From Candidatus Kaiserbacteria bacterium (GTDB lineage Bacteria; Patescibacteriota; Minisyncoccia; Phycocordibacterales; JABMNX01), in assembly GCA_016186705.1 (NCBI GenBank), contig JACPLB010000004.1, positions 12,381 through 76,380 on the forward strand: a stretch of 64,000 nucleotides of DNA, read 5' to 3'. The stretch's first letter is position 1. Each line of letters begins with the position of its first letter. The notes beneath the pieces are model-generated. The model was not told where the DNA came from, did not search any database, and worked only from the letters and a program-made list of their open reading frames with translations. The translations under genes were made by a program, and so were the position numbers. Shown piece after piece: positions 5,986 to 61,618 of the stretch.

Positions 5986-8900
5986 TTACCCCTCTGCCTC
6001 CGATGCTGCTTTTATTTCTTCCTGAAGTTTCTTGATGAGTTCTTCTTTCGGGCTTCCTTTAAAACCGGTCCCCGCAGGAATTAAGCGCCCAATGATGACG
6101 TTCTCCTTGAGTCCCTTGAGTTTGTCGACGCTCCCGCGCACTGCCGCGTTAATGAGAATGCGGGTCGTATTTTGAAACGAAGCCGCTGAAAGGAAACTTT
6201 TCCGAGAGAGGGACACTTCGGTAATACCCAACACAAGCGGTTCTGCAACAGCAGGGGTCTTTCCTGCGTCTTTCAAACGCTTGTTTTCCTCCAAAAGTTC
6301 CGCCTCTTCGACGACATCTCCCACGGCGTACGAAGAATCCTCCTGACTCTTTATCTTTCGACGAGAGAACATCTGCTTGACAATGACTTCAATGTGCTTT
6401 CGCGAGATAGTAACCCCTTGAAGCTCGTAAATCTTTGTCGCTTCGTTAATTATATACGCTTGCGCTATTTCTTTGCCGGCATACTTGAAAAGCTCAGCGA
6501 TATTGACAGAGCCGTCAGTCATAAATTGGCCTTTCTTGACGGAGTCCCCCTCTACAACTGTGGGTGTTCGCAGGAAATGGACGGGGTACTCAGTGTCCTT
6601 CTTTTTCGCGCTTTTCCCACCTTCGTCGGGTACAAGCACGATGACTTTCTCTTTGCCTTCTTGGCGAATGTCCGTCACCGTACCCGAGAGATGGGCAACT
6701 ATTGCGGCGTTCTTCGGCATGCGTTTTTCAAAGACTTCTTCAACGCGAGGCAAACCGTGTGTAATGTCTCCGCCCGCCGACGCAATACCTCCCGCATGAA
6801 ACGTGCGCATTGTAAGCTGGGTTCCGGGCTCGCCAATCGCTTGCGCGGCAATAGTTCCGACAGCCTCACCGATGTCAACAATTTCGCTCTTTGACATATC
6901 AGTGCCATAACAGGTGCGGCATATGCCGTGCGCCGTCTTGCACGTCATTGGAGAGCGCACAAATACTTCTTCAGCCCCGCCTTCTTCAATCTCTCGTGCC
7001 TCTTTCTGTAAAATAAGGTCACCTCTTTTATAGAGCACCGCGCCCTTTTTATCTTTTACCGATTCCGCAAGGTAGCGACCGACAATGTCGCGAGCGATTG
7101 AAACCTGGATGCCGGACGCGCTCTGTCTTGTAATTCGAACGCTTTCTTTTGTTTTACAATCGTCCTCGGAGATAATGGCGTCTTGTGCAACGTCAAAAAG
7201 CCGCCGCGTAAGGTATCCCGCTTTTGCGGTCTGAAGCGCGGTGTCGGTCAATCCCTTCCTTGAGCCGTGAGTCGTAATGAAATATTCAATCGGCGAGAGC
7301 CCTTCTTTCATTGACGCGATAATCGGGAATTCGATTGTCTCTCCCCGAGGGTTCTGGATAAGTCCCTTCATGCCCGCCATTTGATTAAGCTGACTTACGG
7401 AACCCCGGGCGCCGGAGATGAGCATGTCATGAACAGACCCCTTTGAGTCCAAAGACGCCGGAAGGAGCGCTTCAATCTTGTTTTTTGCTTCAAGCCATAT
7501 CCCGACAGACATGCGATGCCGCTCCCCTCGTGAAAGCAGTCCTTCATTATATTGGGAAATGATGTCGGCGTTTTTCTTTTTCGCTTCGGCAACAATCTCT
7601 TTTTTCTCTTTGGGAATGACCAGGTCAGAGAGACTCCATGTAATACCCGAGGAGGTCGCGTATTTGAAGCCGAATTCTTTTATCTTATTGAGAATATCGG
7701 GAATCTGCGCAAGCCCGTACCGTTCAATCAGACTGTCGACAAGTTTTGCCATTTTCTTGTTCGTCATTTCATCATTGATAAACGGATAGTCGCTCGGCAG
7801 AACGCTGTTAAAAAGCAACCGCCCGACGGACGTTTCAAAAACGCTTCCTTTGAATCCCTTGTATTTTTTACTGTCCGTTGGAAGCACTTTTACGCGCGCC
7901 CGAAATCCAACTTCCCCGAAATCATACGCCGTAATGGCGCTATTCGGAGTAGAAAAATGCTTGCCTTCTCCACGTTCTCCAGAGACTATTTTCGTCATCC
8001 AGTAGCATCCGAGAATGATGTCTTGCCGAGGATTCGTTACCACTTCGCCGCTTCCGGGCTTGAGTACGTTGTGATTCGCGGACATGATTTTTTCCGCTTC
8101 AAGCTGTGCCTCTTCCGAGAGCGGCACGTGCACTGCCATTTGGTCGCCGTCAAAGTCAGCGTTGAACGCGGAGCAGACAAGAGGATGAATCTGAATGGCG
8201 TTTCCTTCAATGAGAATCGGCCGAAACGCCTGGATGCCCTGGCGGTGCAAGGTCGGGGCGCGGTTGAGAAGTACGTGTTTGTCCTGAATGACTTCTTCAA
8301 GGATTGCCCAGACTTCAGGAATGCCGTCGTCAATCAAACGCCCCGCACCCCTGATGTTGTACGCGAGTTCTTTTTCAAGAAGTTTGGAGATAACGAACGG
8401 GCGGAAAAGTTCAAGCGCCATATGTTTTGGCAATCCGCATTCGTCAAGTTTCAGGTGCGGGCCGACGACAATGACGGAACGTCCGGAATAATCGACTCGT
8501 TTCCCCAAAAGGTTTCCGCGGAAATATCCCTGTTTCCCCTTTAGGTAATCGGAAAGCGACTTGAGCGGACGACGTTGTGATTGGCTCATCGCGGAAAAGG
8601 CGGTATTGCCATGCCGTATTGAATTATCCAAAAGCGCGTCAACCGCCTCCTGGAGAATTCTCTTTTCATTGCGCAAAATGACGTCAGGCGCCTGGATATC
8701 CTTGAGTTTCTTCAAGCGATTGTTTCGATTGATGACCCTCCGGTATAGGTCGTTGACGTCGGATGATGCATGGCGACCTCCTTCGAGCGCAACCATTGGC
8801 CGGAGCATGGGCGGAATAACCGGAAGGCGCACGAGAAACATCCATTCCGGACGCACTTTTGCGCGTATCATTGAGGAGATGAGAGAGAGGCGTTTGTTGA

Positions 8901-9651
8901 GTTTCACCTTCTCCACCGCGCCCGCTTTTTCTTTTTGTTCTTCAAGCGTCTTTGCGAGTTTCCCGAGGTCAAGATTCTTAAACAAATTGTAAATTGCTTC
9001 GGCGCCGATTTCCGCTTCAAAGAGGCCCCCAAATCTCACCGAAAAAGTGTGATATGCGACTTCGTCAAGGACACCCCCCTCGGTAACACTTTCAATGTCA
9101 CGTTTTGTCTGTACTAAAAGCTCTTTGAGTTTCGTCTTTGTCTTTGAATCGGTTGCCGCTTTTACTTTCGTTTTATACTCGGTATCGAGCTCTTTGAGAA
9201 GCCGGGTCTTTTCCTCTCGGCTGACTTTTGTAATGATGTAGCCGGCAAAGTAGATGACCTTCTCAATCTCGCCCGCCGAGAGCCCAAGAATGAGCGCGAT
9301 ACGCGACGGAATACTGCGGAGAAACCAGATGTGCGACACCGGCGTCGCAAGTTCAATGTGCCCCATTCGGTCGCGGCGAACAATTGAGCGCGTCACTTCG
9401 ACTCCGCATTTCTCGCAGACGATGCCTTTAAAGCGAATTCCACGGTACTTTCCGCAGTAACATTCAAAATCCTTCTCGGGACCAAAAATCTTTTCGTCAA
9501 AGAGACCGTTTTTCTCGGCTCGCTGGGTGCGATAATTGATAGTCTCGGGCTTTGTCACTTCTCCGTGCGACCAATCCAAAATCCGCTCAGGAGACGCGAG
9601 TTTAAGCGTAATCATGTCAAAATACTGGTTTGTGTGGGAGTCCCTCTTCAT
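5986..9651 (-). CDS. rpoC: DNA-directed RNA polymerase subunit beta' (RpoC)
   Basis: Conserved LASPERILDWSHGEVTKPETINYRT, zinc-binding CxxC...CxxC, NADFDGDQM catalytic motif. The ATG at 9651 lies 1 nt after the rpoB TAA; the ORF-track start at 9693 would overlap rpoB. Confidence 0.95.
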   Translation of the reverse strand: MKRDSHTNQYFDMITLKLASPERILDWSHGEVTKPETINYRTQRAEKNGLFDEKIFGPEKDFECYCGKYRGIRFKGIVCEKCGVEVTRSIVRRDRMGHIELATPVSHIWFLRSIPSRIALILGLSAGEIEKVIYFAGYIITKVSREEKTRLLKELDTEYKTKVKAATDSKTKTKLKELLVQTKRDIESVTEGGVLDEVAYHTFSVRFGGLFEAEIGAEAIYNLFKNLDLGKLAKTLEEQKEKAGAVEKVKLNKRLSLISSMIRAKVRPEWMFLVRLPVIPPMLRPMVALEGGRHASSDVNDLYRRVINRNNRLKKLKDIQAPDVILRNEKRILQEAVDALLDNSIRHGNTAFSAMSQSQRRPLKSLSDYLKGKQGYFRGNLLGKRVDYSGRSVIVVGPHLKLDECGLPKHMALELFRPFVISKLLEKELAYNIRGAGRLIDDGIPEVWAILEEVIQDKHVLLNRAPTLHRQGIQAFRPILIEGNAIQIHPLVCSAFNADFDGDQMAVHVPLSEEAQLEAEKIMSANHNVLKPGSGEVVTNPRQDIILGCYWMTKIVSGERGEGKHFSTPNSAITAYDFGEVGFRARVKVLPTDSKKYKGFKGSVFETSVGRLLFNSVLPSDYPFINDEMTNKKMAKLVDSLIERYGLAQIPDILNKIKEFGFKYATSSGITWSLSDLVIPKEKKEIVAEAKKKNADIISQYNEGLLSRGERHRMSVGIWLEAKNKIEALLPASLDSKGSVHDMLISGARGSVSQLNQMAGMKGLIQNPRGETIEFPIIASMKEGLSPIEYFITTHGSRKGLTDTALQTAKAGYLTRRLFDVAQDAIISEDDCKTKESVRITRQSASGIQVSIARDIVGRYLAESVKDKKGAVLYKRGDLILQKEAREIEEGGAEEVFVRSPMTCKTAHGICRTCYGTDMSKSEIVDIGEAVGTIAAQAIGEPGTQLTMRTFHAGGIASAGGDITHGLPRVEEVFEKRMPKNAAIVAHLSGTVTDIRQEGKEKVIVLVPDEGGKSAKKKDTEYPVHFLRTPTVVEGDSVKKGQFMTDGSVNIAELFKYAGKEIAQAYIINEATKIYELQGVTISRKHIEVIVKQMFSRRKIKSQEDSSYAVGDVVEEAELLEENKRLKDAGKTPAVAEPLVLGITEVSLSRKSFLSAASFQNTTRILINAAVRGSVDKLKGLKENVIIGRLIPAGTGFKGSPKEELIKKLQEEIKAASEAEG

Positions 9652-9652
9652 G

Positions 9653-12600
9653 TTATTCTTCGCGTCCGTTATCGTTTTTAAGTTCAATATCAAGAGAAAG
9701 CCCGCGCAAGTGTTTGAGAAGCACGCTAAACGACGCCGGTGTGTGCGGGTGACTGATGCGCTCCGCTTTCACAATCGAATCAAAAGCCGCGGAACGTCCG
9801 ATAATATCGTCTGATTTGATGGTGAGTATTTCCCGAAGCGTGTACGCAACGCCGTACCCGAGGAGCGCCCAGACTTCCATCTCACCGAACCGCTGTCCGC
9901 CAGCTTGCGCTTTTCCGCCAAGGGGCTGCTGCGTAATCAAGGAGTACGGACCGATGGAGCGCATGTGGATCTTGTCTTCAACCATATGGTGAAGTTTGAG
10001 AATATACATGTAGCCGACGGCAATATTCTGACTGAATGATTCCCCAGTACGGCCGTCATACAGTTTGATTTTTCCATCTTTACTGAAACCAGCACTCTCG
10101 AGTTCTTTTTCGATTTCTTCTCCCGTCGCGCCGGCAAATGGAGGGACAATCGCCTGGTACTTAAGCGTGTGCGCCGCAAGCCCGAGGTGCATTTCGAGAA
10201 TTTGCCCGAGGTTCATGCGGCTCGGAACGCCAAGCGGCGTGAGAATGACGTCAATCGGCTCCCCGTCTTCAGAATACGGCATGTCCGCTTCGGGCAAGAT
10301 GCGCGAAATGACTCCTTTGTTGCCGTGCCGCCCCGCCATTTTATCTCCGACTGATACGTTCCGCAGTTGCGCCACTTCAACATGGATGCGCTTAATGATG
10401 CCGGAATCAAGATCATCTCCATTGTCGCGTGAAAATACCTTTATACCGACGACACGACCGCGCTTGCCTCCCTCGACGCGAAGCGATGTGTCTTTCACAT
10501 CTTTCGCCTTCTCGCCGAAAATCGAACGCAAGAGGCGTTCTTCCGGGGTAAGTTGTGTTTCCCCTTTTGGCGTTACTTTCCCCACCAATATGTCTCCCGG
10601 ACGGACTTCCGCGCCGATGCGAACGATACCGTCTTCATCGAGATTTCTGAGTTTCGCTTCTCCAACGTTCGGTATGTCGTGCGTCGTTACCTCGGGACCG
10701 AGTTTCGTATCACGAACGCTCACGCTGAATTCCTCCACGTGGATGCTCGTAAACTTGCTGTCTTTCACCAACCGTTCAGAAATGATGATTGCGTCCTCGT
10801 AGTTCGCTCCCGACCATGACATGAAGGCGACTCGGACATTCTGCCCCAATGCGACTTGTCCTCGGTCGCTTGATGAATTATCCGCAAGGAGCGCCCCCTT
10901 TTTAACTTTGTCTCCGACAGAGACAGTTGGCCGATGATGAAAGACTGAAAAATCATTTGTCCGGAGGAAATTCACGAGCGGGTACTCTTTCTTCTCACCC
11001 TTGGTGTTTTTAACGATAATCTTTCGCGCATCAACATATGTTACTTCTCCGGCGTCTTTCGCAAAGACTAGCCTGCCGGAATCACGAGCGACATGTGTTT
11101 CAATGCCGGTCGCAACGAGAGGCGCCTGCGGAATGATGCACGGTGTCGCCTGTTTTTGCATGTTTGAGCCCATGAGTGCCCGGTTCGCGTCATCGTGCTC
11201 AAGAAACGGAATCATAGACGGCGCAATGGAGAACGCCTGATTTGTGGCAACGTCAATAAATTCAATTTCCTCGCGCGCTACCATTGTCGGCTCTCCAGCG
11301 ACACGAACCTCTACCGTCGCTTCGCGTATAACCCCGTTTTCATCATACGGTGTCGCGGCGTGCGCGATTTTCCGGCGTTCTTCTTCAAGGGCGTTGAGGT
11401 GCACGATTTCACCGGTAACCTTTCCATCTTTTACTTTCACATACGGAGTTTCAATAATTCCAAATTCGTTAATCCGCGCGTGTGTCGCGAGGTGAAGGAT
11501 AAGACCGATGTTCGGACCTTCCGGCGTATGAATCGGACAGAGACGCCCATAATGGCTCGGGTGTACGTCGCGCACTTCAAAGCCAGCGCGCTCGCGCGTC
11601 AGCCCTCCCGGTCCGAGCGCTGAAAGCGTTCGAAGATGTTCTATCTCGGAGAGAATATTCTGCTGTCCCATGAACTGGGAGAGCTGGTTTGTCGTAAAGA
11701 ATTCCTTGATTGCGGCCTGGAACGGACGAGGATTGATGAACTGTATTGGAAGCGTCGTTTCCGCCTCGACGGTGGACATGCGGTCTTGGATATTTCGCTT
11801 CATGCGAGACATACCAACCCGAATCTTCTGCTGAAGAAGCTCGCCGATATAGCGCACGCGGCGAAAACCGAGGTGGTCAATGTCGTCCGCAATCGCTCCT
11901 TGCGTGTTATTCAGCGTAATGATGTTTGAGACAATAAGCACGATATCGTCAAGCGAAATCGTGCGCCGTTCAAGCTCCCGCGCGTCAACCGACATGCCGA
12001 AGCGCTGGTTAAAATGCCGGCGGCCAACTTTTGAGAGGTCGTATCTTTCCTTACTGAAAATTGACGCAATGTGGTCTTTGGCATTCTGTGCTGTCGCCAA
12101 ATCCCCGTCTCGCAAACGTCTATGAATTTCTATAAACGCTCCGTCAACCGTTGTCGCAATATCTTTCCCAAGAGTGGTTTCGAGAACTTTCTTGGCGTTG
12201 GAGTTCTGTTTAAAAAGGTCGAACATGTCCTTGTCGAACGTCGCTCCCATGATGCGCAAGAGTGACGTGACTGGGAATTTTCGCTTGCGGTCAATTTTTA
12301 CATAAACAGCCCCATCAGCTTCGCTTTCAATCTCAACCCATGCCCCGCGAGCCGGTATAATCTTCGCGCCAAAATACTGTTTGCCCCGAAGCTCTTTTGT
12401 GCCGAAAAAGACGCCGAATGAGCGGGCGAGTTGAGGGACAATGACCCGCTCAACACCATTAATGATGAACGTGCCGTGGTCAGTCATCATGGGGAAATCA
12501 GCAAGGAAAATCTCCTGTTCTTTCGAACCGCCGATTGTTTTATTTTTTAACGTTACCGTTGCCCGAAGCGGCGCTTCATAGGTAAGCATATTTTTCTTGA

Positions 12601-27688: not shown

Positions 27689-28924
27689 ATGAATAAAAAT
27701 ACGCCTCAAGAACTCCAGGACCACGACCACCGCAAAATCGGGAAGGAACTTGACCTTTTCACGTTCTCCGACCTTGTGGGTTCGGGGCTTCCACTGTGGA
27801 CTCCACGCGGAACGCTCATCCGGCAAGAACTTGACCGTTATGTATGGGAACTTCGCGCGCGCTATGGTTATGAACGCGTCACCATCCCTCACATTACAAA
27901 GCGAGACCTCTATGAAACATCGGGGCATTGGGGAAAGTTTGGAGATGATTTGTTCAAATTTTCTTCGCGAGAAGGGCGCGAGTACGCACTCAAGCCAATG
28001 AACTGTCCACATCACACGCAGATATTTGCGCGCCGACCGATGAGTTATCGTGAGATGCCGCAAAGATACGCCGAAACAACGATGGTATACCGAGACGAGC
28101 AATCCGGAGAACTCGGAGGATTGACGCGCGTCCTATCGATTACTCAAGACGATAGCCATGTTTTCTGCAGGACACCCCAGATAAAAGAAGAGTTTATGCA
28201 CATTTGGGATATTGTTGACACGTTTTACCGAACATTCGGTTTTACTCTCAATGTACGGCTTTCTTTCCATAACCCGAACACCCCTGAAAAATATATAGGG
28301 ACTCCGGAGGTGTGGAAAAATGCTGAGAATGCGCTCCGCGAGATAGCGAGGGAGCGCGGCGCAGATTCTATTGAAGTGTTGGGAGAGGCGGCATTATATG
28401 GTCCAAAACTTGATTTCATGGCAACCGACTCAATTGGAAGAAAGCACCAAGTCGCAACCATTCAACTCGACCTTAATCTTCCAGAGCGTTTTGACCTGAC
28501 GTGCATAAACGAACGAGGAGAGCGAGAGCGTATAGCCATCATTCACAGCGCCATTATGGGATCTATTGAGAGATTTACCGCCGTTTTGCTAGAGCATCTT
28601 AAAGGAGCCTTTCCGCTCTGGCTCTCGCCGGTGCAGGTCGTGGTTCTTCCTATCACCGAAAAACACATCGGGTATGCGCGCGAAGTCACAGAGGCACTGA
28701 AGAGCAAGAGACTCCGTGTTGACATTGACGACAGTTCGGAGACGCTTGGGAAAAAAATACGTTTAGTTAAACTAGAGAAAACTCCTTATTTCGTGGTTAT
28801 CGGGGACGAAGAAGTGGAGAGTAAACGAGTGACGCTTGAGAGCCGCGATAGCGGTAAGATAGGCGCAATCGCCCTTGACGCACTCATTGAACGGCTTGCG
28901 GCAGAAGTTGAATCAAAAAAATAA
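27689..28924 (+). CDS. thrS: Threonyl-tRNA synthetase, catalytic plus anticodon-binding domains only (no N-terminal TGS/editing domains)
   Basis: Begins at the class II catalytic core (HRKIGKELDLF...; motif 2/3 regions; HSAIMGSIERF). The C-terminal anticodon-binding domain is present. It is 411 aa against ~640 for canonical bacterial ThrRS. Confidence 0.85.
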   Translation: MNKNTPQELQDHDHRKIGKELDLFTFSDLVGSGLPLWTPRGTLIRQELDRYVWELRARYGYERVTIPHITKRDLYETSGHWGKFGDDLFKFSSREGREYALKPMNCPHHTQIFARRPMSYREMPQRYAETTMVYRDEQSGELGGLTRVLSITQDDSHVFCRTPQIKEEFMHIWDIVDTFYRTFGFTLNVRLSFHNPNTPEKYIGTPEVWKNAENALREIARERGADSIEVLGEAALYGPKLDFMATDSIGRKHQVATIQLDLNLPERFDLTCINERGERERIAIIHSAIMGSIERFTAVLLEHLKGAFPLWLSPVQVVVLPITEKHIGYAREVTEALKSKRLRVDIDDSSETLGKKIRLVKLEKTPYFVVIGDEEVESKRVTLESRDSGKIGAIALDALIERLAAEVESKK

Positions 28925-28929
28925 CACCG

Positions 28930-30348
28930 CTAAGTTCTCCTCCTCTCTCGCGCGTACTCCACGGCGCGCAGGAGTGCCATCTTCGCGCTCGTGTGTTGCG
29001 TGAGATAATTCTGGTCAATGCCTGTTGAGAGAATATGAATCAGTCGCTCAATATCTTTGTTGTTCCACCTTTCAAAACTATCTTCAATAGACTCGTCGCT
29101 CAATGTCTCATTCTCGCCGATGCGGCGGCAGTAGAGACGGTCAAGTTCGCAGAGCATGCGCACCAACACTTCCGGCATGTCCTGCTTCTCTGCTTTATAC
29201 GCCTGCATGATGTCGAGCACCCGATTGGTATCTCCATGAACGACAGCTTTAATCAACTGGGCGGACGAAGATTCTCCTGTTTCCGTTCTTGTTTCTTTCC
29301 CTTCAACACCCGCCCGTAGCGCACCGAGCGTGGGAGCAGGACGCGAAACAAAAGTCTCCCTTTCCGAAACGGCACTATTCACGTTTGATGAACGTTTCAG
29401 TTCAAGTCGAGGCGAAGTGCCGTCAGGTCCGGTTTCGAGTATCAGCGTGTCGCTTGCGTAAGACATTCCCTTATCTGGAGCACCATTTTCGAGCGGAGAG
29501 GTGAGCATGTCGGATAGTGCATTGTCAAAGCTGTCGTTATTGTCAGGGACATATTCAGCATGCTTCTCCTCATGTACTCGGACTGTTTCTCCCGCACTAA
29601 ACACATGCTTTAAAGTATAGAAAAGCTTTGCACCGAACTTTCGAGTAAGTAAAAGGTATGCCAAAAAACCGCTCCAGAGCATGAGCACAAGCCAGTAAAG
29701 ACCCGTAACAATCGGGCCCGCTTTAAAGCCGGTATACGGAATCTGGCTTAAGGTAATAAACGCAAGCGGCTGTTCGGAAACTCCCGGAAGAGAATCTACA
29801 GAGACGCTCGGGGCATTAAGACCTCCCGCTCCGCCGGTGCCTCCCGGGCCGCCGGACGAACCGCTATCACCGGAACTGTCGCCTCCTGAATCCCCTCCTC
29901 CGTCACCTGCATCGCCCGCATCTCCTGCATCACCTGCGTCGCCTCCTGCGTCGCCGCTACCTCCACCTGCGCCTCCAGAGCCGCCACTACCTCCACCAGG
30001 AGCACCCGCGCCGGAATCACCGGAAGAGTCGCCTCCCCCATCACCTGCTCCTGCACCGTCGCCGGCAGAGTCTCCTCCAGAGTCCCCTCCTGAGTCACCA
30101 CCTGAATCTCCTCCTGAATCCCCTCCAGAGTCACCGCCGGAATCTCCACCCGAATCACCCTGAGCAAATACATGATTGATGCTGAAACCAATCGGCTTGT
30201 GATTTTGAATTAATTTATAGTCAGGGGTTGTGTGAAAAAAAGAAAAAAAGAAAACAACAGAAGAAATGGAAACGGCAACAATCTTACGAAGGAATCGTCT
30301 CATGAGCAATGAAATGTTTTTTTGAGTTTTTTTAATATGCTGAGACAT
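28930..30348 (-). CDS. Bitopic membrane protein: signal peptide, Gly/Asp/Ser-repeat (GDSGG)n extracellular region, an LPXTG-like IPYTG motif followed by a TM helix and basic residues, then a ~250-aa cytoplasmic domain
   Basis: N-terminal hydrophobic signal (…VAVSISSVVFFFSFF…AQ), more than 25 GDSGG/GDAGD repeats, ...QIPYTGFKAGPIVTGLYWLVLMLWSGFLAYLLLTRKFG..., long C-terminal soluble domain. The ATG at 30348 was verified. Confidence 0.6.
   Translation of the reverse strand: MSQHIKKTQKNISLLMRRFLRKIVAVSISSVVFFFSFFHTTPDYKLIQNHKPIGFSINHVFAQGDSGGDSGGDSGGDSGGDSGGDSGGDSGGDSAGDGAGAGDGGGDSSGDSGAGAPGGGSGGSGGAGGGSGDAGGDAGDAGDAGDAGDGGGDSGGDSSGDSGSSGGPGGTGGAGGLNAPSVSVDSLPGVSEQPLAFITLSQIPYTGFKAGPIVTGLYWLVLMLWSGFLAYLLLTRKFGAKLFYTLKHVFSAGETVRVHEEKHAEYVPDNNDSFDNALSDMLTSPLENGAPDKGMSYASDTLILETGPDGTSPRLELKRSSNVNSAVSERETFVSRPAPTLGALRAGVEGKETRTETGESSSAQLIKAVVHGDTNRVLDIMQAYKAEKQDMPEVLVRMLCELDRLYCRRIGENETLSDESIEDSFERWNNKDIERLIHILSTGIDQNYLTQHTSAKMALLRAVEYARERRRT
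29820..30170. repeat. Tandem 15-nt coding repeats (e.g. gagtcaccacctgaatctcctcc, minus-strand GDSGG units) inside the gene above
   Basis: Visible 15-bp periodicity in the sequence. The opposite-strand ORF (29837..30163, P/E/S-rich) is the mirror reading of the same repeats. Confidence 0.75.
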
Positions 30349-30360
30349 ATTATTTGTATA

Positions 30361-30403
30361 AAAAGTGTTGGAACACGGCTCACACGCGAGCCGCGTTCCA
30401 CAC
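30361..30403 (-). terminator. Rho-independent terminator after the sortase/lipoprotein operon
   Basis: Minus-strand RNA gives GUGUGGAACGCGGCUC-GCGUGU-GAGCCGUGUUCCAACAC followed by UUUUUA. This is an inverted repeat with one mismatch. Confidence 0.5.
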
Positions 30404-30420
30404 TTTAAGCGATGCCGTCG

Positions 30421-31032
30421 CTAGCTTTGCGGCGGCACCTTTGTGTTCAACCGAGTCGCGGGGTATTTCGGTTTCCCCTGCGAATCGATGTCTTCGCCCG
30501 GCTTGGTGAAATATTTTTCGCTCGGATTATTGTACTCGAGTTTCACCCCCGGCTTTGAAGACCAGATCTTGACGAAGTGTTTGCTCGTCAGAGCGTCTTG
30601 CGACACCCAGAGCGTCCCTTCGCCATTGTGCGTCCGGAGGACGGGATTTATTTCCCCGTTTTGCGAGGATGTTTCTTCGCGCTTCGTGACTTCGCCAGTC
30701 TTCGTGGTGCCGAAAAGCACGACGCGCATATTCGGCTTGAGTCCCCGAAGCCCCACGGTAATGGGAAATTCGCCGACGTGGAGCGCCCCTTCCTTGTAGA
30801 GACTTTGACGAATATCGTCCCTGCTGTTGCTGCTCCCCCAAACCATGCCTTGGGCTGGTCCGACGTTCTGCCAGACGCAGAGCTTATAGGCGATGAAACC
30901 CTCGCGAGCCTCACCTTGAGAACATTTGTCGGCACGTACGATAGAATCAACCGCCGTCGCGCATGCACCGAGGGTGAGCAATCCCGCCAGAAGTACGCTG
31001 AAGAGCGGTGTCAGGTTGAGGACACGCTTCAT
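30421..31032 (-). CDS. Lipoprotein of unknown function (lipobox LTLGAC)
   Basis: MKRVLNLTPLFSVLLAGLLTLGACATAV has signal peptidase II features. The ATG at 31032 was verified and forms an ATGA overlap with the upstream gene. Confidence 0.6.
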   Translation of the reverse strand: MKRVLNLTPLFSVLLAGLLTLGACATAVDSIVRADKCSQGEAREGFIAYKLCVWQNVGPAQGMVWGSSNSRDDIRQSLYKEGALHVGEFPITVGLRGLKPNMRVVLFGTTKTGEVTKREETSSQNGEINPVLRTHNGEGTLWVSQDALTSKHFVKIWSSKPGVKLEYNNPSEKYFTKPGEDIDSQGKPKYPATRLNTKVPPQS

Positions 31033-31688
31033 GACGCTCCTCCTGTCTTTGCCGTCCTCAGCGCCCAATTCACGCAACGCTCGGGTTTCACGAGGATGTA
31101 CTTAACGTTCTCGTGAACGAAAACGTACTCGCGCGTTGACGCCCCCTCTTGGAAAGCGACTTCAACACAGCGTTTGAGCTTTTTCTTTTTGTCCTTGCCG
31201 CCACGTCCGTAGACCATGACGTCAAGTGTGTCCCCCTTCTTAAGCGAGCCGCTTGTGCCGCTGTCTGCCTTCGCGAGCTCGAGAAGTTTCTTTGCCACCT
31301 CATCGGGAAGCTTCATTTCTTTCTTGATGAGGTCCATCGCGTCAGAGAGGCCTTCCGGGTCCTTATTTGTCGGGTCGAACCACGGATCGTGCCCGTAGCT
31401 CTTCCAGACGAACGGACAGGATTGCGGTTTCTCCGCGCCGGGTGTCGTGACTGTTTTGACCGCACTGTCCGAAAACTCGACAGGCGGCGGTCCGTCTTTA
31501 CCCGACGGAAGGTGTTCCGTCGAGGCGGAACGCCACGGTTGCGCGTCCCCTTTGCCGTTAACCGAGAAGTCTGGGCAATTGCCGACGCATGTGCCGGCAA
31601 CGGAATTGTTGCCGGCGAACGAACACGCGCCAAGCGTGAACGAAGCCGCAACCATGAAAGCAAGCGCTTTCAGAGTACTCTGGACCAT
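31029..31688 (-). CDS. Lipoprotein of unknown function (lipobox FTLGAC)
   Basis: MVQSTLKALAFMVAASFTLGACSF...; Cys-containing N-terminal region (CVGNCPDF), Lys-rich C-terminus. Confidence 0.6.
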   Translation of the reverse strand: MVQSTLKALAFMVAASFTLGACSFAGNNSVAGTCVGNCPDFSVNGKGDAQPWRSASTEHLPSGKDGPPPVEFSDSAVKTVTTPGAEKPQSCPFVWKSYGHDPWFDPTNKDPEGLSDAMDLIKKEMKLPDEVAKKLLELAKADSGTSGSLKKGDTLDVMVYGRGGKDKKKKLKRCVEVAFQEGASTREYVFVHENVKYILVKPERCVNWALRTAKTGGAS

Positions 31689-31780
31689 TGTGATGTCCTT
31701 TCTTGTCTGTTGGGTTGGCCAGGTTACGTGTTAAAGAACTAACGAACACTCCCTACTTAGAGAGTTATCTGCTAACGAAA

Positions 31781-32437
31781 TTATATCGCAAGCACATAAC
31801 TCCCCGCGTAATCCGCTTCAACCACGTACCGTTCGCTCTCCGCGCCGAACGAATTGCAGGTTGAGAGCGTCAGTTTTCTCACACCGCGCCGGATGTCAAC
31901 CTTAATCTCGTCTGCTTCCGCAAGCGTTACGCTCGTAACGCGATACACATATCGTGTATTCTCTGAGTCAACAAATATCTCGTCTCTGTACGCAAGTTTG
32001 CCGAGATTGTTAAATGTTTGATAATTTTTGTTTATAACGTTCGGCAGAAAGCTCGAGTGCCCAAAGAGGAAAATGTTCGCGTCCTCTTCTAACGTTCCTG
32101 TACCCGGGTAATGCACCGCTCCACGGCTCAGTGCCCGGTCAAGCACTTCAATGTCGCGGCTTTCGGGATTTTCAACACGAGCGTCTATGCCAACTTTCGG
32201 GATCGTAATCCGAACAGGCTCTCCTAATTCCCCATGTTGCACAACCTCGGATGTTTCGGCATACGCGCTTGTTACCGGCGTGTGTGCGGATGTAGGAGTG
32301 TACTCGGGAACAAATCCAATCAAGAAGAGAATTAAGAATGACAAAAAGAACATGAGCAGAAATAAATACAGGAACTCCCACTTCTGCTTAAACAGAATAG
32401 TCGCGTGTGTTGTGAAGCTAGAGCCGTTACGTATCAT
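31781..32437 (-). CDS. Sortase-family transpeptidase
   Basis: N-terminal TM anchor; catalytic His (LFGHSS), TLSTC cysteine motif (TLxTC) and conserved Arg downstream. Confidence 0.8.
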   Translation of the reverse strand: MIRNGSSFTTHATILFKQKWEFLYLFLLMFFLSFLILFLIGFVPEYTPTSAHTPVTSAYAETSEVVQHGELGEPVRITIPKVGIDARVENPESRDIEVLDRALSRGAVHYPGTGTLEEDANIFLFGHSSFLPNVINKNYQTFNNLGKLAYRDEIFVDSENTRYVYRVTSVTLAEADEIKVDIRRGVRKLTLSTCNSFGAESERYVVEADYAGSYVLAI

Positions 32438-32551
32438 GTCTCTGGGCTGTACCTTTGTACACTACGTTTGTAGATTTGTCAAATTGCGAGTTTTCTTCTT
32501 TTTACTACCTACACGATATCATAGACGACACGTTGACATTTTTATTTTCAT

Positions 32552-33586
32552 GTGCTACACCTATCGGGTATGAATCATCCGGGAGAACAAGTAAAAGAAA
32601 TCGCCATCCGCAGCTTGGCGGTAGTTGGCTTTCTCGCCGTACTCTCTCTCGGGCTCTGGGGAACGGTTCAAGTCGTCAGATTGACGCCAGCCATCTTTTC
32701 TTCCCTTGCAGCTGTTACGACAACGCTCACATCGGTGTTCATCCCCCGGCATGAGGAAATTACTATCAATACTCCGGATTCTCTTATCCTTACCGGCAAT
32801 GTTTTTGAATTGACGTGGTCCTACCGCAACAAGCCTGTGAACGTTCTGTACACGTTCAGCTACGCATGCGAGGAAGGATTTTCTTTTGAACTGTCAAACA
32901 ACGGCGGGGTGTATGAAGCGGTACCGTGCGATGCTCCGTTCTCTTTTACAAGCGATACCGACGTGCTCCGTCTTATTCCCCTCTCAAAGGACAAGAGACT
33001 CATCGAAGTACCGGTAATTATTTCTTCGGTGCGCGAGAGCGGAGATATTGCGGCGTCGCGGGAGCTCACGTTAACCATTGCTAACGAATTCTCTTCCGAA
33101 AGCGGCTCAACGAAAAGTACAGGGGCGGGACAGGCTGCTTCTGTTGCCGCAGGAGAACGCACTGACACGATTTTTCCCATCACTGACAGCAGGACGACAT
33201 CAAATCCGCTCGGAGAGCCGGATCTTACTGTGAGCGCTCTAAGAATCGGCATTATCAATAGTGAAAACGAGTTTGTGCCGGCAGATTCAGTACGCGTGAG
33301 TGACCGCGCTGCCGTTCGATTTGAAGTAAGCAATATTGGCACAAAAACATCTGACAACTGGACTTTTAACGCCGTACTCCCGACATTTCCCATGCATATT
33401 TTCCATTCAACGTCCCAACAGACACTCGCGCCGGGAGAGAGAATTGAATTTACGCTTGGATTTGACCAACTCAACAAAAACCTCTCCGAAGGAGTTGTGA
33501 CGATTAACGTCGACCCGACATACAGCATCAAGGAAGCCAGTGAAGAGAACAATGTTAGGCAAATAACCTTTGTGATTTCCAAATAA
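32552..33586 (+). CDS. Membrane-anchored surface protein with a C-terminal CARDB-like domain
   Basis: N-terminal TM (AVVGFLAVLSLGLWG). The C-terminus reads PDLTVSALRIG...VRFEVSNIGTKTSDNWTFNAVL...LAPGERIEFT...TINVDPTYSIKEASEENNV, the CARDB pattern. A GTG at 32552 or the ATG at 32570 could be the start. Confidence 0.6.
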   Translation: MLHLSGMNHPGEQVKEIAIRSLAVVGFLAVLSLGLWGTVQVVRLTPAIFSSLAAVTTTLTSVFIPRHEEITINTPDSLILTGNVFELTWSYRNKPVNVLYTFSYACEEGFSFELSNNGGVYEAVPCDAPFSFTSDTDVLRLIPLSKDKRLIEVPVIISSVRESGDIAASRELTLTIANEFSSESGSTKSTGAGQAASVAAGERTDTIFPITDSRTTSNPLGEPDLTVSALRIGIINSENEFVPADSVRVSDRAAVRFEVSNIGTKTSDNWTFNAVLPTFPMHIFHSTSQQTLAPGERIEFTLGFDQLNKNLSEGVVTINVDPTYSIKEASEENNVRQITFVISK

Positions 33587-35882: not shown

Positions 35883-38216
35883 TTATCGGACTTCAAACCC
35901 TTTGTTTTGATGAAGCGACGTAGTTACGCTCTCCATAATTTCATTTACTTCCTTGTCGGAAAGTGTCTTTTCACTGGATTGAAATACCAACTGAAACGCG
36001 TAAGAGACGCGCTTGTCTTTCTTGTATTCGTCAAAAAACGATATGCGTACGAGAAGATTCCCCGCATGCTCTTTTATGCGGCTTTCAAGTTCCTGTGCAT
36101 CCACTTCTTCAGGCGCCCATACGGCAATGTCCCGAAGGACAAACGGGTAGATCGAGAATGGGCGGTACGAGAAGCCTTCGTGCTCAAAAATGTCTTCATA
36201 AAACGTCGGTTCGGGAAGTGCGTCGAGCACTACGTCAAGATTACACTCACATACACCGCCTGACCATACGCCTCCTAAGACAATCCCGAGTTCTGATGAG
36301 AGAGCTTGTACGGCTTTTTCCGCATTTTCTTTTGCGCTCGAGCCGATACATAGAGCTGTATATTCTTTCAGGTGCTCCGTACTGCCCTTAAAAATCTTGC
36401 CGATTTCAAATAAGTTAACGTCGTTTACGCCGAAGAGCGGCAGATTTTTTTGATTGCGCGCAATACCCTCTTCCACTCCGTAGTGCAATCCATCGCGCAG
36501 AAATGATTTATCGCCGGCAAGCGGGTTTTCAATTTCTATCTGCCCAAAATTCCTCATTGAGTACGTATACACTTCTGTAAAGCCCCTGTCAGTAAGAAAG
36601 CGGCGAATTTTTTCTGCGTAATAGAAACTCTTGTTTATGTCCGGCTGTATGCTGTTTTGTTCCGGAATCAGAGCGGGAATATTTTGATACCCGTAGATTC
36701 TCCCGATTTCTTCAATAAGGTCTTCTTTAACACGCACGTCCAAACGCTCAAATGGAATCTTAACGACATAGCGTTTTTTGTTGTCGGTCATCCGGCGGTA
36801 ACCGATAATGTCTTTATATTGCTTTGAATCTGATATTTTCTCTTCAACGACCATCCCCTGCTCGCGAGCGGCGTGTATCATGTTCTCTTCGCCGATATAT
36901 AACGCACAGTGGTCGACTCCTTCGGGCACTGCGGTGCCTTTCATGTATCCCACTGTCTCGTATCGTACAGCTCCCGTTTTGCTATTAAAGAAAATGAGGT
37001 CTCCTGGCTGGATATCTGAAGCACCAACGGGCATCCCGTATGCATACTGGTCAATTGATACACTCGGTAGCGCAACGCCGCCCTCAACAAAAAGATAATT
37101 GGTAAATGAGGAACAGCTGAATTGTTTTCCGTTGTCATATCGAATTGCCCCAATCGGCGTATATGGTATGCCCTTCAGAGAGGGGGCGAGCGAAAGCACT
37201 TTTTCAATCGGAGAGACCTTTTCATAAACATATCCAAGAGAAGTGAGTGTCTTTTCAATTTCTTTTGCTGTGATTGACGCACCAAGGAGTTGATTTACTT
37301 CGCTAAGCGACATTCCGACTTTATACTGCATGGTCATCCGTTTCGGATACGCATCAACGTATCCCTCGACGTCCCCTCCCGCGATTTCAAGTATGAGATT
37401 TACCGCTTCGGTAATGCCGTAGTAGGCAAGCTCCGGCGCAAGCTCGTTTTCAAAACGTATTGACGCGTCGGTGCGAATTTCAAAATGGCGCGACGTTTTG
37501 CGGATGCTTGTCGGATTAAAGTTCGCCGACTCAATAATAATATCTTCCGTTTTTTCATCAATGTCGGCTGTAACACCTCCCTTTACCCCGGCGATGCCGA
37601 GAGGAAGACCGGAGTGTCCGTCAGCAATAAGGAGATGGTCGGGAGAGAGTGTGTGCTCTTCCCCGGAAAGCAGAGTTATCGTCTCTCCCTTCTTTGCGCT
37701 GCGGACAATAATATGCATTCCATTTTCCTCCGCGAGCTTCCGCGCGTCAAACGCGTGGAGGGGTTGACCAAGAGAAAACATAACATAATTAGTCGCATCA
37801 ACGACATTGTTGATGGATTTTTGACCAATACTTAGAAGTCTCTCTTGAAGCCATTGCGGAGATGGAGCAATGCGCGCACCGCGGATAACCCCAGCCATGT
37901 AGCGGCGGCACATGAGCGGGTTTTCAACGGAGACCGAGAGCGTGCGTGACAAAGGAAGCTGTTTTTCCTTTTCGCGCATCACATCTTGCTTAAGCGGCAT
38001 GTTTAAAAGTACGGAGAGTTCTCGCGCAACACCGAGATGCGACAGACAGTCGTGTGTTCGATTCGGCAGAATGTCTATATCAAAGATAGTATCATCTCCG
38101 ATCTTCTCTACATGCTCCACTTCAAAAGCATGGAACGTGAGCGTGTCCGCGACCATCTCGGGAGACGGGAGTTCTTTTTCAAAATACGATTGCAGCCAGC
38201 GATAACTTGCTTTCAT
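35883..38216 (-). CDS. pheT: Phenylalanyl-tRNA synthetase beta subunit carrying a ~150-aa NlpC/P60-like insertion in the B5 domain
   Basis: B3/4, B5 (…LGYVYEKV // YVVKIPFERLDVRVKEDLIEEIGRIYGYQNIP) and C-terminal domains align with PheT. Residues ~341-495 instead read ...GKQFSCSSFTNYLF...GDLIFF...HCALYIGEENMIHAA..., matching NlpC/P60 Cys and His/His motifs. Confidence 0.9.
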   Translation of the reverse strand: MKASYRWLQSYFEKELPSPEMVADTLTFHAFEVEHVEKIGDDTIFDIDILPNRTHDCLSHLGVARELSVLLNMPLKQDVMREKEKQLPLSRTLSVSVENPLMCRRYMAGVIRGARIAPSPQWLQERLLSIGQKSINNVVDATNYVMFSLGQPLHAFDARKLAEENGMHIIVRSAKKGETITLLSGEEHTLSPDHLLIADGHSGLPLGIAGVKGGVTADIDEKTEDIIIESANFNPTSIRKTSRHFEIRTDASIRFENELAPELAYYGITEAVNLILEIAGGDVEGYVDAYPKRMTMQYKVGMSLSEVNQLLGASITAKEIEKTLTSLGYVYEKVSPIEKVLSLAPSLKGIPYTPIGAIRYDNGKQFSCSSFTNYLFVEGGVALPSVSIDQYAYGMPVGASDIQPGDLIFFNSKTGAVRYETVGYMKGTAVPEGVDHCALYIGEENMIHAAREQGMVVEEKISDSKQYKDIIGYRRMTDNKKRYVVKIPFERLDVRVKEDLIEEIGRIYGYQNIPALIPEQNSIQPDINKSFYYAEKIRRFLTDRGFTEVYTYSMRNFGQIEIENPLAGDKSFLRDGLHYGVEEGIARNQKNLPLFGVNDVNLFEIGKIFKGSTEHLKEYTALCIGSSAKENAEKAVQALSSELGIVLGGVWSGGVCECNLDVVLDALPEPTFYEDIFEHEGFSYRPFSIYPFVLRDIAVWAPEEVDAQELESRIKEHAGNLLVRISFFDEYKKDKRVSYAFQLVFQSSEKTLSDKEVNEIMESVTTSLHQNKGFEVR

Positions 38217-57900: not shown

Positions 57901-58854
57901 TTACACGACCTGAACAAGAGTAGATACCCCATTTCCGCCTGACGGACCTGTAGAACCAGAGGAACCTCCGGGACTTCCACCGGCTCCGCCACCTCCCCCT
58001 GCTCCTCCCGCAACAGATACGGAACCGCTGTTTGATAAAGTGCCTTTATAAAGTAATATAACACGTCCACCTCCTGCCCCGCCGCCGCCATTGCCGCCAC
58101 CGCCTCCCTGACAATCTCCCCCTCCGCTTGCGTTTTCTCCGTTACCTCCCCCTCCGCCGTCTCCTCCGATAGCAGAAATGATACCACTTGCGCCTATTGT
58201 CAGATTGCCTCCAACAATAAGAATTAATGCACCTCCTCTTGCCGTTGAGCCTGCACCTCCCGAACCGCCCTGACCAACTGTGCAACCAGATTCTGGTCCT
58301 CCACCTCCTCCGGCGGCGCCATTGCCTCCCGCACCTCCTGTTCCCCCTCCTCCGGCAGTGCCAGCACTTCCTCCTCCACCGCCTCCAGTCTGGTCTGTAA
58401 CTCCACTTGCTCCGCTTGCCGCGCCTGGCTGCGCTGATCGGTATTTTGAAAAAGTTCCCGTTGGAACTCCCGTGGTCGGCTGATTTGATTCGCTTGGAAA
58501 TAAAGTGTCCGCCGCTGCTCCGTTATTTGCTCCGGGGTCGACAAACCGCGAGACATCAATATCTTCTGCAGTATAAGATACCCCCAAGCCGTTCATGTGC
58601 AATGTCCCGTTGATGGTGCAATTTCCCTTCACGTAAATCAACATGGCTGCGCACGCAGAGCCGGAAGTTAAATTTACTCCGGAATTGATTATCAGAGAAT
58701 TATAATTTTTTAGAGCGACATTGCTTACAGGTGCGATTGTTGTATTCGTGGAAATCGTCACATCACCGTCACTGCCATCCCCAAAATAATTTTCTATCGA
58801 ACCCCCACCGGCGGCGCCGAGGAGTGTTTTGAATGACGTTCCAAAGGGAGACAT
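57901..58854 (-). CDS. Glycine-rich repeat protein (N-terminal ~150-aa domain plus long GGxGG/GGNG solenoid-like repeats), no signal peptide
   Basis: …IENYFGDGSDGDVTISTNTTI… N-terminal domain, then >150 aa of Gly-rich repeats separated by short hydrophobic beta-like blocks (ALILIVGGNLTIG…, RVILLYKGTLSN…). Confidence 0.55.
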   Translation of the reverse strand: MSPFGTSFKTLLGAAGGGSIENYFGDGSDGDVTISTNTTIAPVSNVALKNYNSLIINSGVNLTSGSACAAMLIYVKGNCTINGTLHMNGLGVSYTAEDIDVSRFVDPGANNGAAADTLFPSESNQPTTGVPTGTFSKYRSAQPGAASGASGVTDQTGGGGGGSAGTAGGGGTGGAGGNGAAGGGGGPESGCTVGQGGSGGAGSTARGGALILIVGGNLTIGASGIISAIGGDGGGGGNGENASGGGDCQGGGGGNGGGGAGGGRVILLYKGTLSNSGSVSVAGGAGGGGGAGGSPGGSSGSTGPSGGNGVSTLVQVV

Positions 58855-61006: not shown

Positions 61007-61531
61007 TTACGCCTTATTGCGGACAAAAAGGAATGCCAGCAATCCGCCGAGAAAGAAGCTGAGGAGGGAAAGAAACAAAGTGTTTCCGAAGGAGGAGCCC
61101 TCCCCTTTGAGAATCTCAAGAGGGAACGTTACTTCTGTTAGCGCTTCTTCATCTCTCTGAAATCGGACGGAAACAGTGTATATCCCTTCTTCCGGAAACG
61201 TGTAGAGCACTCCGATCGGGCCGAATTCAGGGCGATGAATGCCGCTTGCAAAGACGGTCCTCTTTTCTTTTTCGATACGAAGCCATACGTCGGAGAATTC
61301 TATCGGTACTCCGCTCTTCTCGTCATATATGGCGAAGTCAAGACGCATGGACTCGCCGGAAGCGATCGTTGGGGGGTCGTAGGCGATATCAACTTGGTAA
61401 CCGTCTACGACCTCTTCATACGATTGTCCAAAACCATGTCCAAAAGCTATGAATGGAAGTGTGAACAAAAACACTGCGACAAAAACGGAGACGTGGTAAC
61501 GAAAACATACTGTATGCACTAGGGAAAACAT
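61007..61531 (-). CDS. Secreted, C-terminally membrane-anchored protein with a predicted N-terminal His after signal cleavage (possible metal-binding Ig-like domain)
   Basis: Signal peptide MFSLVHTVCFRYHVSVFVAVFLFTLPFIAFG|HGFGQ..., beta-rich middle, C-terminal TM (LFLSLLSFFLGGLLAFLFV). The ATG at 61531 was verified. It lies next to the ArsR regulator. Confidence 0.45.
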   Translation of the reverse strand: MFSLVHTVCFRYHVSVFVAVFLFTLPFIAFGHGFGQSYEEVVDGYQVDIAYDPPTIASGESMRLDFAIYDEKSGVPIEFSDVWLRIEKEKRTVFASGIHRPEFGPIGVLYTFPEEGIYTVSVRFQRDEEALTEVTFPLEILKGEGSSFGNTLFLSLLSFFLGGLLAFLFVRNKA

Positions 61532-61618
61532 TTCTAGAAAATTATTGTGTACAGTATACCACAATGAAACAAGCGCCTCCTTTACATGAGATGTACCCTC
61601 TCTAGAACGCAGGTGTCT

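Follow-up and report, generated by a model that had tools for sequence, protein, structure and literature searches.

Sortase signals are defined as C-terminal, and the remnant that stays behind after cleavage is regarded as disposable. The LPXTG signal is tripartite, consisting of the motif, a transmembrane (TM) segment and a basic cluster, and Haft and Varghese described 'dedicated' sortase cassettes in which the enzyme has a single adjacent target (PMC3237569). A sortase is encoded in more than half of the genomes of the candidate phyla radiation (CPR) (PMC6744442). Here we analyse a 64,000-nt stretch of the Candidatus Kaiserbacteria contig JACPLB010000004.1 (the window), in which a gene at 28930..30348 on the minus strand encodes a 472-aa protein that carries the sequence IPYTG far from its C-terminus; we call it the PYTG protein. 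An earlier note on this DNA had described it as a repeat-rich surface protein with an internal sorting signal and a cytoplasmic domain. That observation is partly confirmed, in its architecture but not in what it says of the repeat, and the interpretation built on it is partly supported. We consider it probable that the PYTG protein is the dedicated substrate of a nearby unclassified sortase, that its sorting signal is non-terminal, and that the two belong to a conserved envelope module of Paceibacterota. The module consists of a CARDB membrane protein, a sortase, zero to two variable secreted proteins or lipoproteins, and the PYTG protein.

The gene was taken from the open reading frame (ORF) listing, with a start codon common to the homologue P0001, and its product is predicted to be bitopic, N-out/C-in. 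All of the following parts lie on the minus strand. Residues 1–38 form the leader, with a basic n-region and a 16-residue hydrophobic core (residues 23–38, 30235..30282, read from the sequence), so that the signal peptide proposed before is present as an N-terminal basic and hydrophobic segment. A spacer follows and ends in VFA|QGD (VFA|Q, residues 60–63), a putative signal-peptidase site directly before the low-complexity ectodomain (Gly/Asp/Ser/Ala, residues 63–175, 29824..30162); the pattern xFA|[QD] is kept directly before the low-complexity region in P0001–P0009. The juxtamembrane element EQPLAFITLSQIPYTG lies at 29728..29775, with IPYTG (residues 203–207, within the short conserved stretch GGLNAPSVSVDSLPGVSEQPLAFITLSQIPYTG) at 29728–29742 and a putative sortase cleavage site at T206/G207. 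Window-protein peptides spanning this putative T|G site are LSQIPYTGFKAG and AFITLSQIPYTGFKAGP. FKAGP separates IPYTG from the hydrophobic TM helix (residues ~213–234, 29647..29712), which was located by a hydropathy scan and corresponds to a helix at module residues 38–61 in the AlphaFold2 model; TRK follows it. The order of IPYTG, FKAGP, helix and TRK given in the earlier note is thus correct as read from the sequence and the hydropathy scan, and so is the statement that a large domain comes after the signal: 265 residues follow the motif and 235 follow TRK, with the C-terminal part confidently predicted to fold.

The cytoplasmic part is divided between a linker (residues 238–359, 29272..29637), mostly predicted to be disordered (pLDDT <50), and a C-terminal domain (28933..29271). 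The linker holds a single conserved element, LETxxNGxSPRLELKR, in the 9-sequence core alignment (A1). In many distant members, among them P0006, P0012, P0016, P0026 and P0110, tandem repeats of the VEPIYENVEPIYEHVEPI type (EPIYx) lie between the TM helix and the C-terminal domain. These are reminiscent of tyrosine-phosphorylation or docking motifs, and the window protein does not have them.

The PYTG protein belongs to a large undescribed family of Paceibacterota proteins, which share a C-terminal module and a mid-protein signal of the sortase type. Using a module profile against 1.84 billion representative proteins, we found 1186 clusters (defined at 50% identity) at E≤1e-3 and 162 at E≤1e-30, and in every case, over protein lengths of 260–1443 aa, the module makes up the last ~300 residues. 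Close homologues, 43–51% identical over the last 298 residues, retain motif, helix and C-terminal region but have an altogether different ectodomain. In P0009 only about 35 residues lie between leader and motif, and the repeat is absent; long members carry CARDB, dockerin, SpaA-like or Ig-like ectodomains, or nothing recognisable. A reading in which the repeat ectodomain is the main point of the protein does not fit a family whose ectodomains are freely exchangeable, down to about 35 aa. A crude hydropathy test for an export signal was passed by 82 of 112 full-length relatives. Scanning one genome per GTDB species placed the family in 183 species, with labels that are all Patescibacteria, Paceibacterota, Kaiserbacteria, Nomurabacteria or similar. 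Closed genomes with the module include OZ244961.1 and CP174360.1. P0003 (L003, GCA_042576465.1) is labelled 'candidate division KSB1 bacterium', probably through a binning or annotation error, since its locus is collinear with those of Paceibacterota (pheT-gyrB-CARDB-sortase-X-target-thrS-dnaE). No model in Pfam or NCBIfam covers any part of the module, and searches of the literature on sortases in CPR, Parcubacteria or Patescibacteria, on IPYTG or PYTG and on internal LPXTG signals turned up no account of this substrate family, a PYTG motif or sortase signals inside a protein.

Within the family, the signal is very strongly conserved. An automatic scan found [IVL]PYTG with a TM helix in 146 of 154 fetched proteins, 220–420 aa before the C-terminus; the residues that follow the motif number 283 in the median (range 218–420). 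The other eight comprise four fragments, one unrelated match, two proteins whose motif fails the hydropathy filter and one with ISYAG. IPYTG is the commonest form (102), followed by VPYTG (28) and LPYTG (9). In alignment A1, LSQ.PYTG is invariant at L, S, Q, P, Y, T and G. Among 207 distinct segments, collected with a search pattern that itself required P, T and G, conservation reaches 100% for L, 94% for S, 93% for Q, 98% for [IVL] and 98% for Y. The earlier note had stated that a lack of conservation of IPYTG in homologues would speak against it, and the motif proves essentially invariant. In the family, the 25 residues behind the helix carry a net charge of +1.8, compared with –0.1 ahead of the motif, and this bias fits an N-out/C-in topology by the positive-inside rule.

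The second line of evidence is the sortase. A membrane-anchored sortase of 218 aa with a His/Cys/Arg triad is encoded at 31781..32437 on the minus strand (PF04203, E=1.6e-20, 73.5 bits); its anchor is N-terminal, and the catalytic domain covers about residues 60–218, with the Cys at position 194. Across 59 orthologues, FGHSS, LTxxTC (LTLSTC) and the catalytic Arg are each at least 95% conserved. None of the NCBIfam models for sortase classes A–F and GN reaches its cutoff (the best, class D, scores 43 bits versus 165), and the enzyme belongs to an unclassified clade. To follow the pair across genomes, ORFs were called in 83 loci and the window, covering ±10 kb per genome, and searched with the proteins of the window. 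A sortase ortholog on the same strand was found in 60 loci, with 183–299 bits to an iterated sortase profile, and it starts 0.7–3.6 kb upstream of the target start in every locus with enough upstream sequence: 52/52 loci with >3.7 kb upstream and 42/42 with >7.4 kb. In the same loci, gyrB was present in 39/42, the upstream CARDB gene in 39/42, and thrS and dnaE in 48/54. Sortase and target are zero to two genes apart in all loci, and the family gene occurs once per locus. For two of the most divergent members, the sortase is the gene directly upstream, 100 nt and 2 nt away, and a sortase is also present in L084–L086.

In the window, gyrB and pheT border the block at one end, and thrS and dnaE at the other. 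Three loci (L041, L042 and L045) have lost these housekeeping neighbours and kept the sortase–target pair. In L042, the sortase, a secreted protein, the PYTG protein and the CARDB protein are encoded on one strand at 7194–11643, among TraG/VirD4-like, FKBP, TGT, UvrB and UvrA genes, and the CARDB gene has moved together with the pair in both L042 and L045. The module thus moves as a unit. In the window, the CARDB-domain protein is N-terminally anchored and encoded divergently, on the plus strand, at 32552..33586 (PF07705, E=1.1e-6).

We also looked for other candidate substrates. A six-frame scan of the whole window identified the PYTG protein as the sole candidate with xPxTG and a hydrophobic helix in a plausible gene, and no canonical C-terminal PxT[GASN] signal occurs in real genes of 1.3 Mb of related loci. 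Neither the window nor the fetched loci contain a second target. A 48-aa signal-segment profile (A3), aimed at canonical versions of the PYTG signal at the C-terminus, gave no scored match in a set of 5.8 billion proteins, and canonical substrates may therefore still exist. The earlier note had named a different substrate of the adjacent sortase as a finding that would count against it; none was seen in the window or the 1.3 Mb of loci, and such a substrate may exist elsewhere in the genome. Taken together, the invariant motif, the 52/52 co-location, the relocated loci and the lack of another candidate in the window and these loci strongly support the note's combination of an internal signal of the LPXTG class, a neighbouring sortase and a real cytoplasmic domain.

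The cytoplasmic domain was modelled with AlphaFold2. For the whole module, both the TM helix and the C-terminal domain were predicted with confidence, and about 125 low-confidence residues lie between them. Predicted alone from 27 diverse sequences, the last 123 residues form a six-helix bundle (pLDDT 90.5, pTM 0.83) with a domain of ~112 residues. In a Foldseek search against the PDB, the top 47 matches of this model are all clamp-loader subunits (probability 1.0). The best match is domain III of E. coli gamma/tau, with a TM-score normalised to the query (TMq) of 0.74–0.78, a root-mean-square deviation of 2.1–3.3 Å over about 110–117 columns and about 20% identity, followed by delta, delta-prime and replication factor C (RFC) subunits. 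Sequence similarity points the same way below threshold. PF12169 matches the full-length protein at E=0.02 and the domain by itself at 7.5e-4 (15.1–19.7 bits versus a gathering score of 24.4), with weak matches in only 3 of 27 family members, and other sub-threshold matches are TIGR01128 (0.003), TIGR02397 (0.046) and PDB entry 1xxi (0.33). With a deeper profile of the domain (A2), the match to gamma/tau became no better (E=1.4 against PDB), and we therefore claim similarity of fold and no family membership. The family has invariant residues of its own, LDxxYRxR and IDxSY, and no dnaX was found for direct comparison in any sequence examined. The model thus suggests that the C-terminal domain resembles the clamp-loader collar specifically in fold. 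It represents a new domain family, absent from Pfam and NCBIfam, that places a predicted collar-like fold in a membrane protein.

These results suggest the following sequence of events. The precursor would be exported via its N-terminal leader and held by its single TM helix as a type I membrane protein. LSQ[IV]PYTG would thereby come to lie outside, only a few residues away from the membrane and at the level where the anchored sortase would have its catalytic domain. The sortase would then cut between Thr and Gly and move the variable ectodomain to the cell wall or another amine acceptor; in the window protein, what is transferred would be merely an acidic thread of Gly, Asp and Ser. The remnant retained in the membrane would consist of a new N-terminal Gly, the TM helix, the disordered linker and the collar-like helical domain. 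The earlier note had spoken of a cytoplasmic domain released by cleavage; the C-terminal fragment keeps the TM helix and would therefore stay membrane-anchored after T–G cleavage.

What the family conserves is the C-terminal module and not the ectodomain. Selection thus acts on the part behind the predicted cleavage site, which means that the cytoplasmic domain must serve some purpose in its own right. The clamp-loader collar is an oligomerisation domain, as established for the gamma complex. If the fold carries the same property here, the most likely role is to cluster or position precursors, or to dock on a cytoplasmic partner, before or after processing. Clustering or positioning is the most economical guess, and coupling of processing to a cytoplasmic partner, perhaps the clamp loader, the most interesting one.

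Several points weigh against cleavage of the PYTG protein by its sortase. The putative T|G cut is deduced from sequence comparison, the signal is not at the C-terminal position that defines LPXTG, and the NCBIfam scan gave no match of TIGR01167 at E≤1. Conservation extends beyond the pentapeptide, with QPLAF..LSQ before and [LF][DE]xGP after it, which is atypical of sortase substrates and could mean that the segment has another role. P0121 carries ISYAG in place of IPYTG with intact flanks (VYLSQISYAGIDLG). The spacer between the hydrophobic core of the leader and the putative signal-peptidase site is unusually long, so that N-terminal cleavage is uncertain. Finally, much of the linkage lies within a long housekeeping syntenic block that few loci break. 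Such a block is weak evidence when taken alone, yet the pair survives its breakage, and the linkage is supported in this way. Apart from this weighing, the ISYAG of P0121 may be a natural loss-of-signal variant.

The main rival explanation is that the protein remains uncleaved. It would be a stable bitopic protein in which the LSQIPYTG-LDLGP segment serves as a structural or binding motif. As a scaffold or pseudo-substrate it might, for example, provide a docking site for the sortase or for the CARDB protein, and the protein would link the surface to an oligomeric platform in the cytoplasm. The wide conservation just described, about 12 residues on each side of the pentapeptide and beyond what sortases usually need, is what such a motif would show, and the failure of TIGR01167 to match is equally in line with it. 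A folded and conserved cytoplasmic domain makes obvious sense only if it is connected to something, and the near absence of an ectodomain in P0009 makes wall anchoring a weak reason for the system. Set against these points is the motif itself, an exact [LIV]PxTG, spaced from a TM helix as in canonical signals, with basic residues on the inner side of that helix. The invariant P, T and G of the motif are the positions that sortases read. A docking motif also leaves a catalytically intact sortase in every locus to be accounted for, and no alternative substrate is seen in the related loci. We regard the uncleaved scaffold as unlikely, and cleavage by the neighbouring sortase as the preferred reading.

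A second explanation accepts processing and gives it another purpose, namely that cleavage is a signal. Cleavage would depend on how much of the wall acceptor, lipid II, is available, and it would change the state of the membrane-bound collar-like domain, for example by affecting how it oligomerises, whether a site-2 protease can attack it, or whether it binds the clamp loader or some other AAA+ partner. Envelope growth would in this way be coupled to a cytoplasmic process. The collar fold is found in the part of the protein that the family conserves, dnaE is usually the neighbour of the gene with gyrB close by, and the ectodomains are dispensable by sequence, all of which would suit a signalling protein. 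However, the sequence link to gamma/tau is sub-threshold and was not strengthened by the deeper profile, dnaE and gyrB are lost in some loci in which the module persists, and neither a site-2 protease nor a partner was identified. The reading is wholly inferential, and we think it quite improbable. In its most far-reaching form, a private sortase would process the bitopic protein at the internal PYTG, and the remaining stub, with a true collar homologue, would form a ring-like platform or dock on the clamp loader of the replisome. Wall anchoring, and with it the supply of lipid II or the growth of the cell, would then be coupled, physically or by regulation, to chromosome replication in these minimal cells by a module near-universal in Paceibacterota. 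We would advance this only as a very doubtful proposal.

The repeat region itself proved ordinary. The earlier note had counted more than 25 GDSGG units made from near-perfect 15-nt repeats (29820–30170) and considered them prone to slippage. The unit is in fact the tetrapeptide DSGG (12 nt), with seven consecutive clean copies at residues 65–92 (about nt 30073–30156), beyond which the sequence decays into irregular G/D/S/A low complexity. The low-complexity region comprises 112 aa (G56, D21, S20 and A12). Tandem Repeats Finder reported periods of 12, 24 and 36 at 73–85% match and none at 15. When the DNA is compared with itself, identity reaches 0.57 for a lag of 12 and 0.41 for a lag of 15, and at the latter the longest uninterrupted match is 5 nt. 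Identical runs are short because the copies differ in synonymous codons, and this variety makes the region poor material for slippage. The DSGG region is therefore ordinary low-complexity coding sequence and no slippage hotspot. A 108-aa antisense ORF at 29837–30163 on the plus strand (…ESPPESPPESPP…) is the mirror image of the DSGG-coding repeat and no gene.

We give almost no credence to the last alternative, a phase-variable SD-repeat adhesin of the MSCRAMM/Sdr type or an assembly or fusion artefact joining a surface protein to an unrelated cytoplasmic ORF: the ClfB, SdrC and SdrD SD-repeat matches that suggest it are weak and compositional (8–11 bits, far under cutoffs of 999–2500 bits) and were rejected as an identity for the ectodomain, and although low-complexity DNA is prone to misassembly, the repeats are imperfect in the DNA, homologues without the repeat keep the C-terminal module, and the artefact reading is rejected because independent assemblies show the fused architecture again and again, in >1000 clusters and in the genomes of 183 species.

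Between sortase and target, the window contains two lipoprotein genes, both on the minus strand, and the sortase and the two lipobox proteins are directly upstream of the target, as the earlier note had it. Lipoprotein A (31029..31688) has the lipobox FTLGAC and lipoprotein B (30421..31032), in the variable slot between sortase and target, the lipobox LTLGAC. Their genes share a 4-nt ATGA stop/start overlap at 31029–31032, which suggests translational coupling. Neither lipoprotein has significant similarity to the single 475-aa lipoprotein in the same slot of L001, and elsewhere the slot holds zero to two fast-evolving secreted proteins or lipoproteins. A strong hairpin resembling a terminator (30369..30400, minus strand), with a 14-bp stem containing 8 GC pairs and followed by a T-run, lies between the lipoprotein B gene and the PYTG gene. 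The target may consequently be transcribed apart from the sortase and lipoprotein genes, or be under read-through control. No Rfam match was found in 28000–33000.

Other genes of the window showed features of their own. The phenylalanyl-tRNA synthetase beta subunit (35883–38216, minus strand) has an NlpC/P60 domain of the cell-wall-hydrolase type (PF00877, 50.5 bits, residues 363–471) inserted just before its B5 domain, and the same combination of NlpC/P60 and pheT is found in L001, L003 and L084. The threonyl-tRNA synthetase (27689–28924, plus strand) is short, at 411 aa, and lacks the tRNA_SAD editing domain present in the 584–594-aa orthologues of L001 and L003. A small protein (61007–61564, minus strand) ends in a hydrophobic helix and RNKA, an anchor-like tail without a motif of the LPXTG type; it adjoins a secreted protein with the bacterial surface Ig-like domain PF16403 (61619–62752, minus strand). 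A 317-aa glycine-rich protein (57901–58854, minus strand) has repeats of the GGxGG type and no Pfam match; a match in it to PESG with a hydrophobic stretch was considered and is not a sorting signal.

The significance of the family lies in the position of its signal. A whole lineage keeps a signal of the sortase type in mid-protein, with the most conserved part of the protein located beyond the point of predicted cleavage. The internal PYTG signal will escape motif predictors that accept signals at the C-terminus only. If cleavage is confirmed, the concept of a sortase substrate would be broadened, and sortases might have a role in transmembrane communication. Next to nothing is known about the cell envelope of the CPR, and the family gives access to it across the lineage through a module of four genes, a motif that is diagnostic, and variable surface domains that are likely to serve contact with hosts or particles.

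Compared with the LPXTG/sortase A type, the PYTG proteins share the N-terminal export leader, the [LIV]PxTG just outside a TM helix, the basic residues that follow, and the strict co-occurrence with a His/Cys/Arg sortase. They differ in that 220–420 further residues, including a conserved folded cytoplasmic domain, come after a signal that is not C-terminal. In addition, the variable position of the motif is fixed as Tyr, with LSQ conserved upstream and [LF][DE]xGP downstream, and the signal escapes TIGR01167 just as its sortase falls outside the NCBIfam classes A–F and GN. The closest parallel in organisation is the class GN sortase TIGR03784 with its vWFA/vault-like LPXTG target (the Gram-negative 'marine' system), which is likewise a cassette of one sortase and one neighbouring target, found across many species and recognisable by adjacency. 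The PYTG sortase, however, is of another clade (22 bits versus a cutoff of 158) and comes from another phylum, and its targets share a C-terminal module rather than an ectodomain and have the signal inside the protein.

The two ends of the protein have their own counterparts. The acidic Ser/Asp/Gly-rich spacer between leader and signal recalls the staphylococcal Sdr/Clf MSCRAMMs, where such a spacer precedes the wall-anchoring signal. The resemblance is compositional: the PYTG protein has no ligand-binding A domain, its DNA repeats are degenerate, and unrelated domains replace the spacer in its relatives. On the cytoplasmic side, the predicted six-helix bundle of ~112 residues superimposes on domain III of E. 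coli clamp-loader gamma/tau (PF12169), a collar domain like the C-terminal domains of delta, delta-prime and RFC. Unlike gamma/tau, the PYTG protein has no AAA+ domains I and II, and what comes before its collar-like domain is a TM helix with a linker predicted to be disordered.

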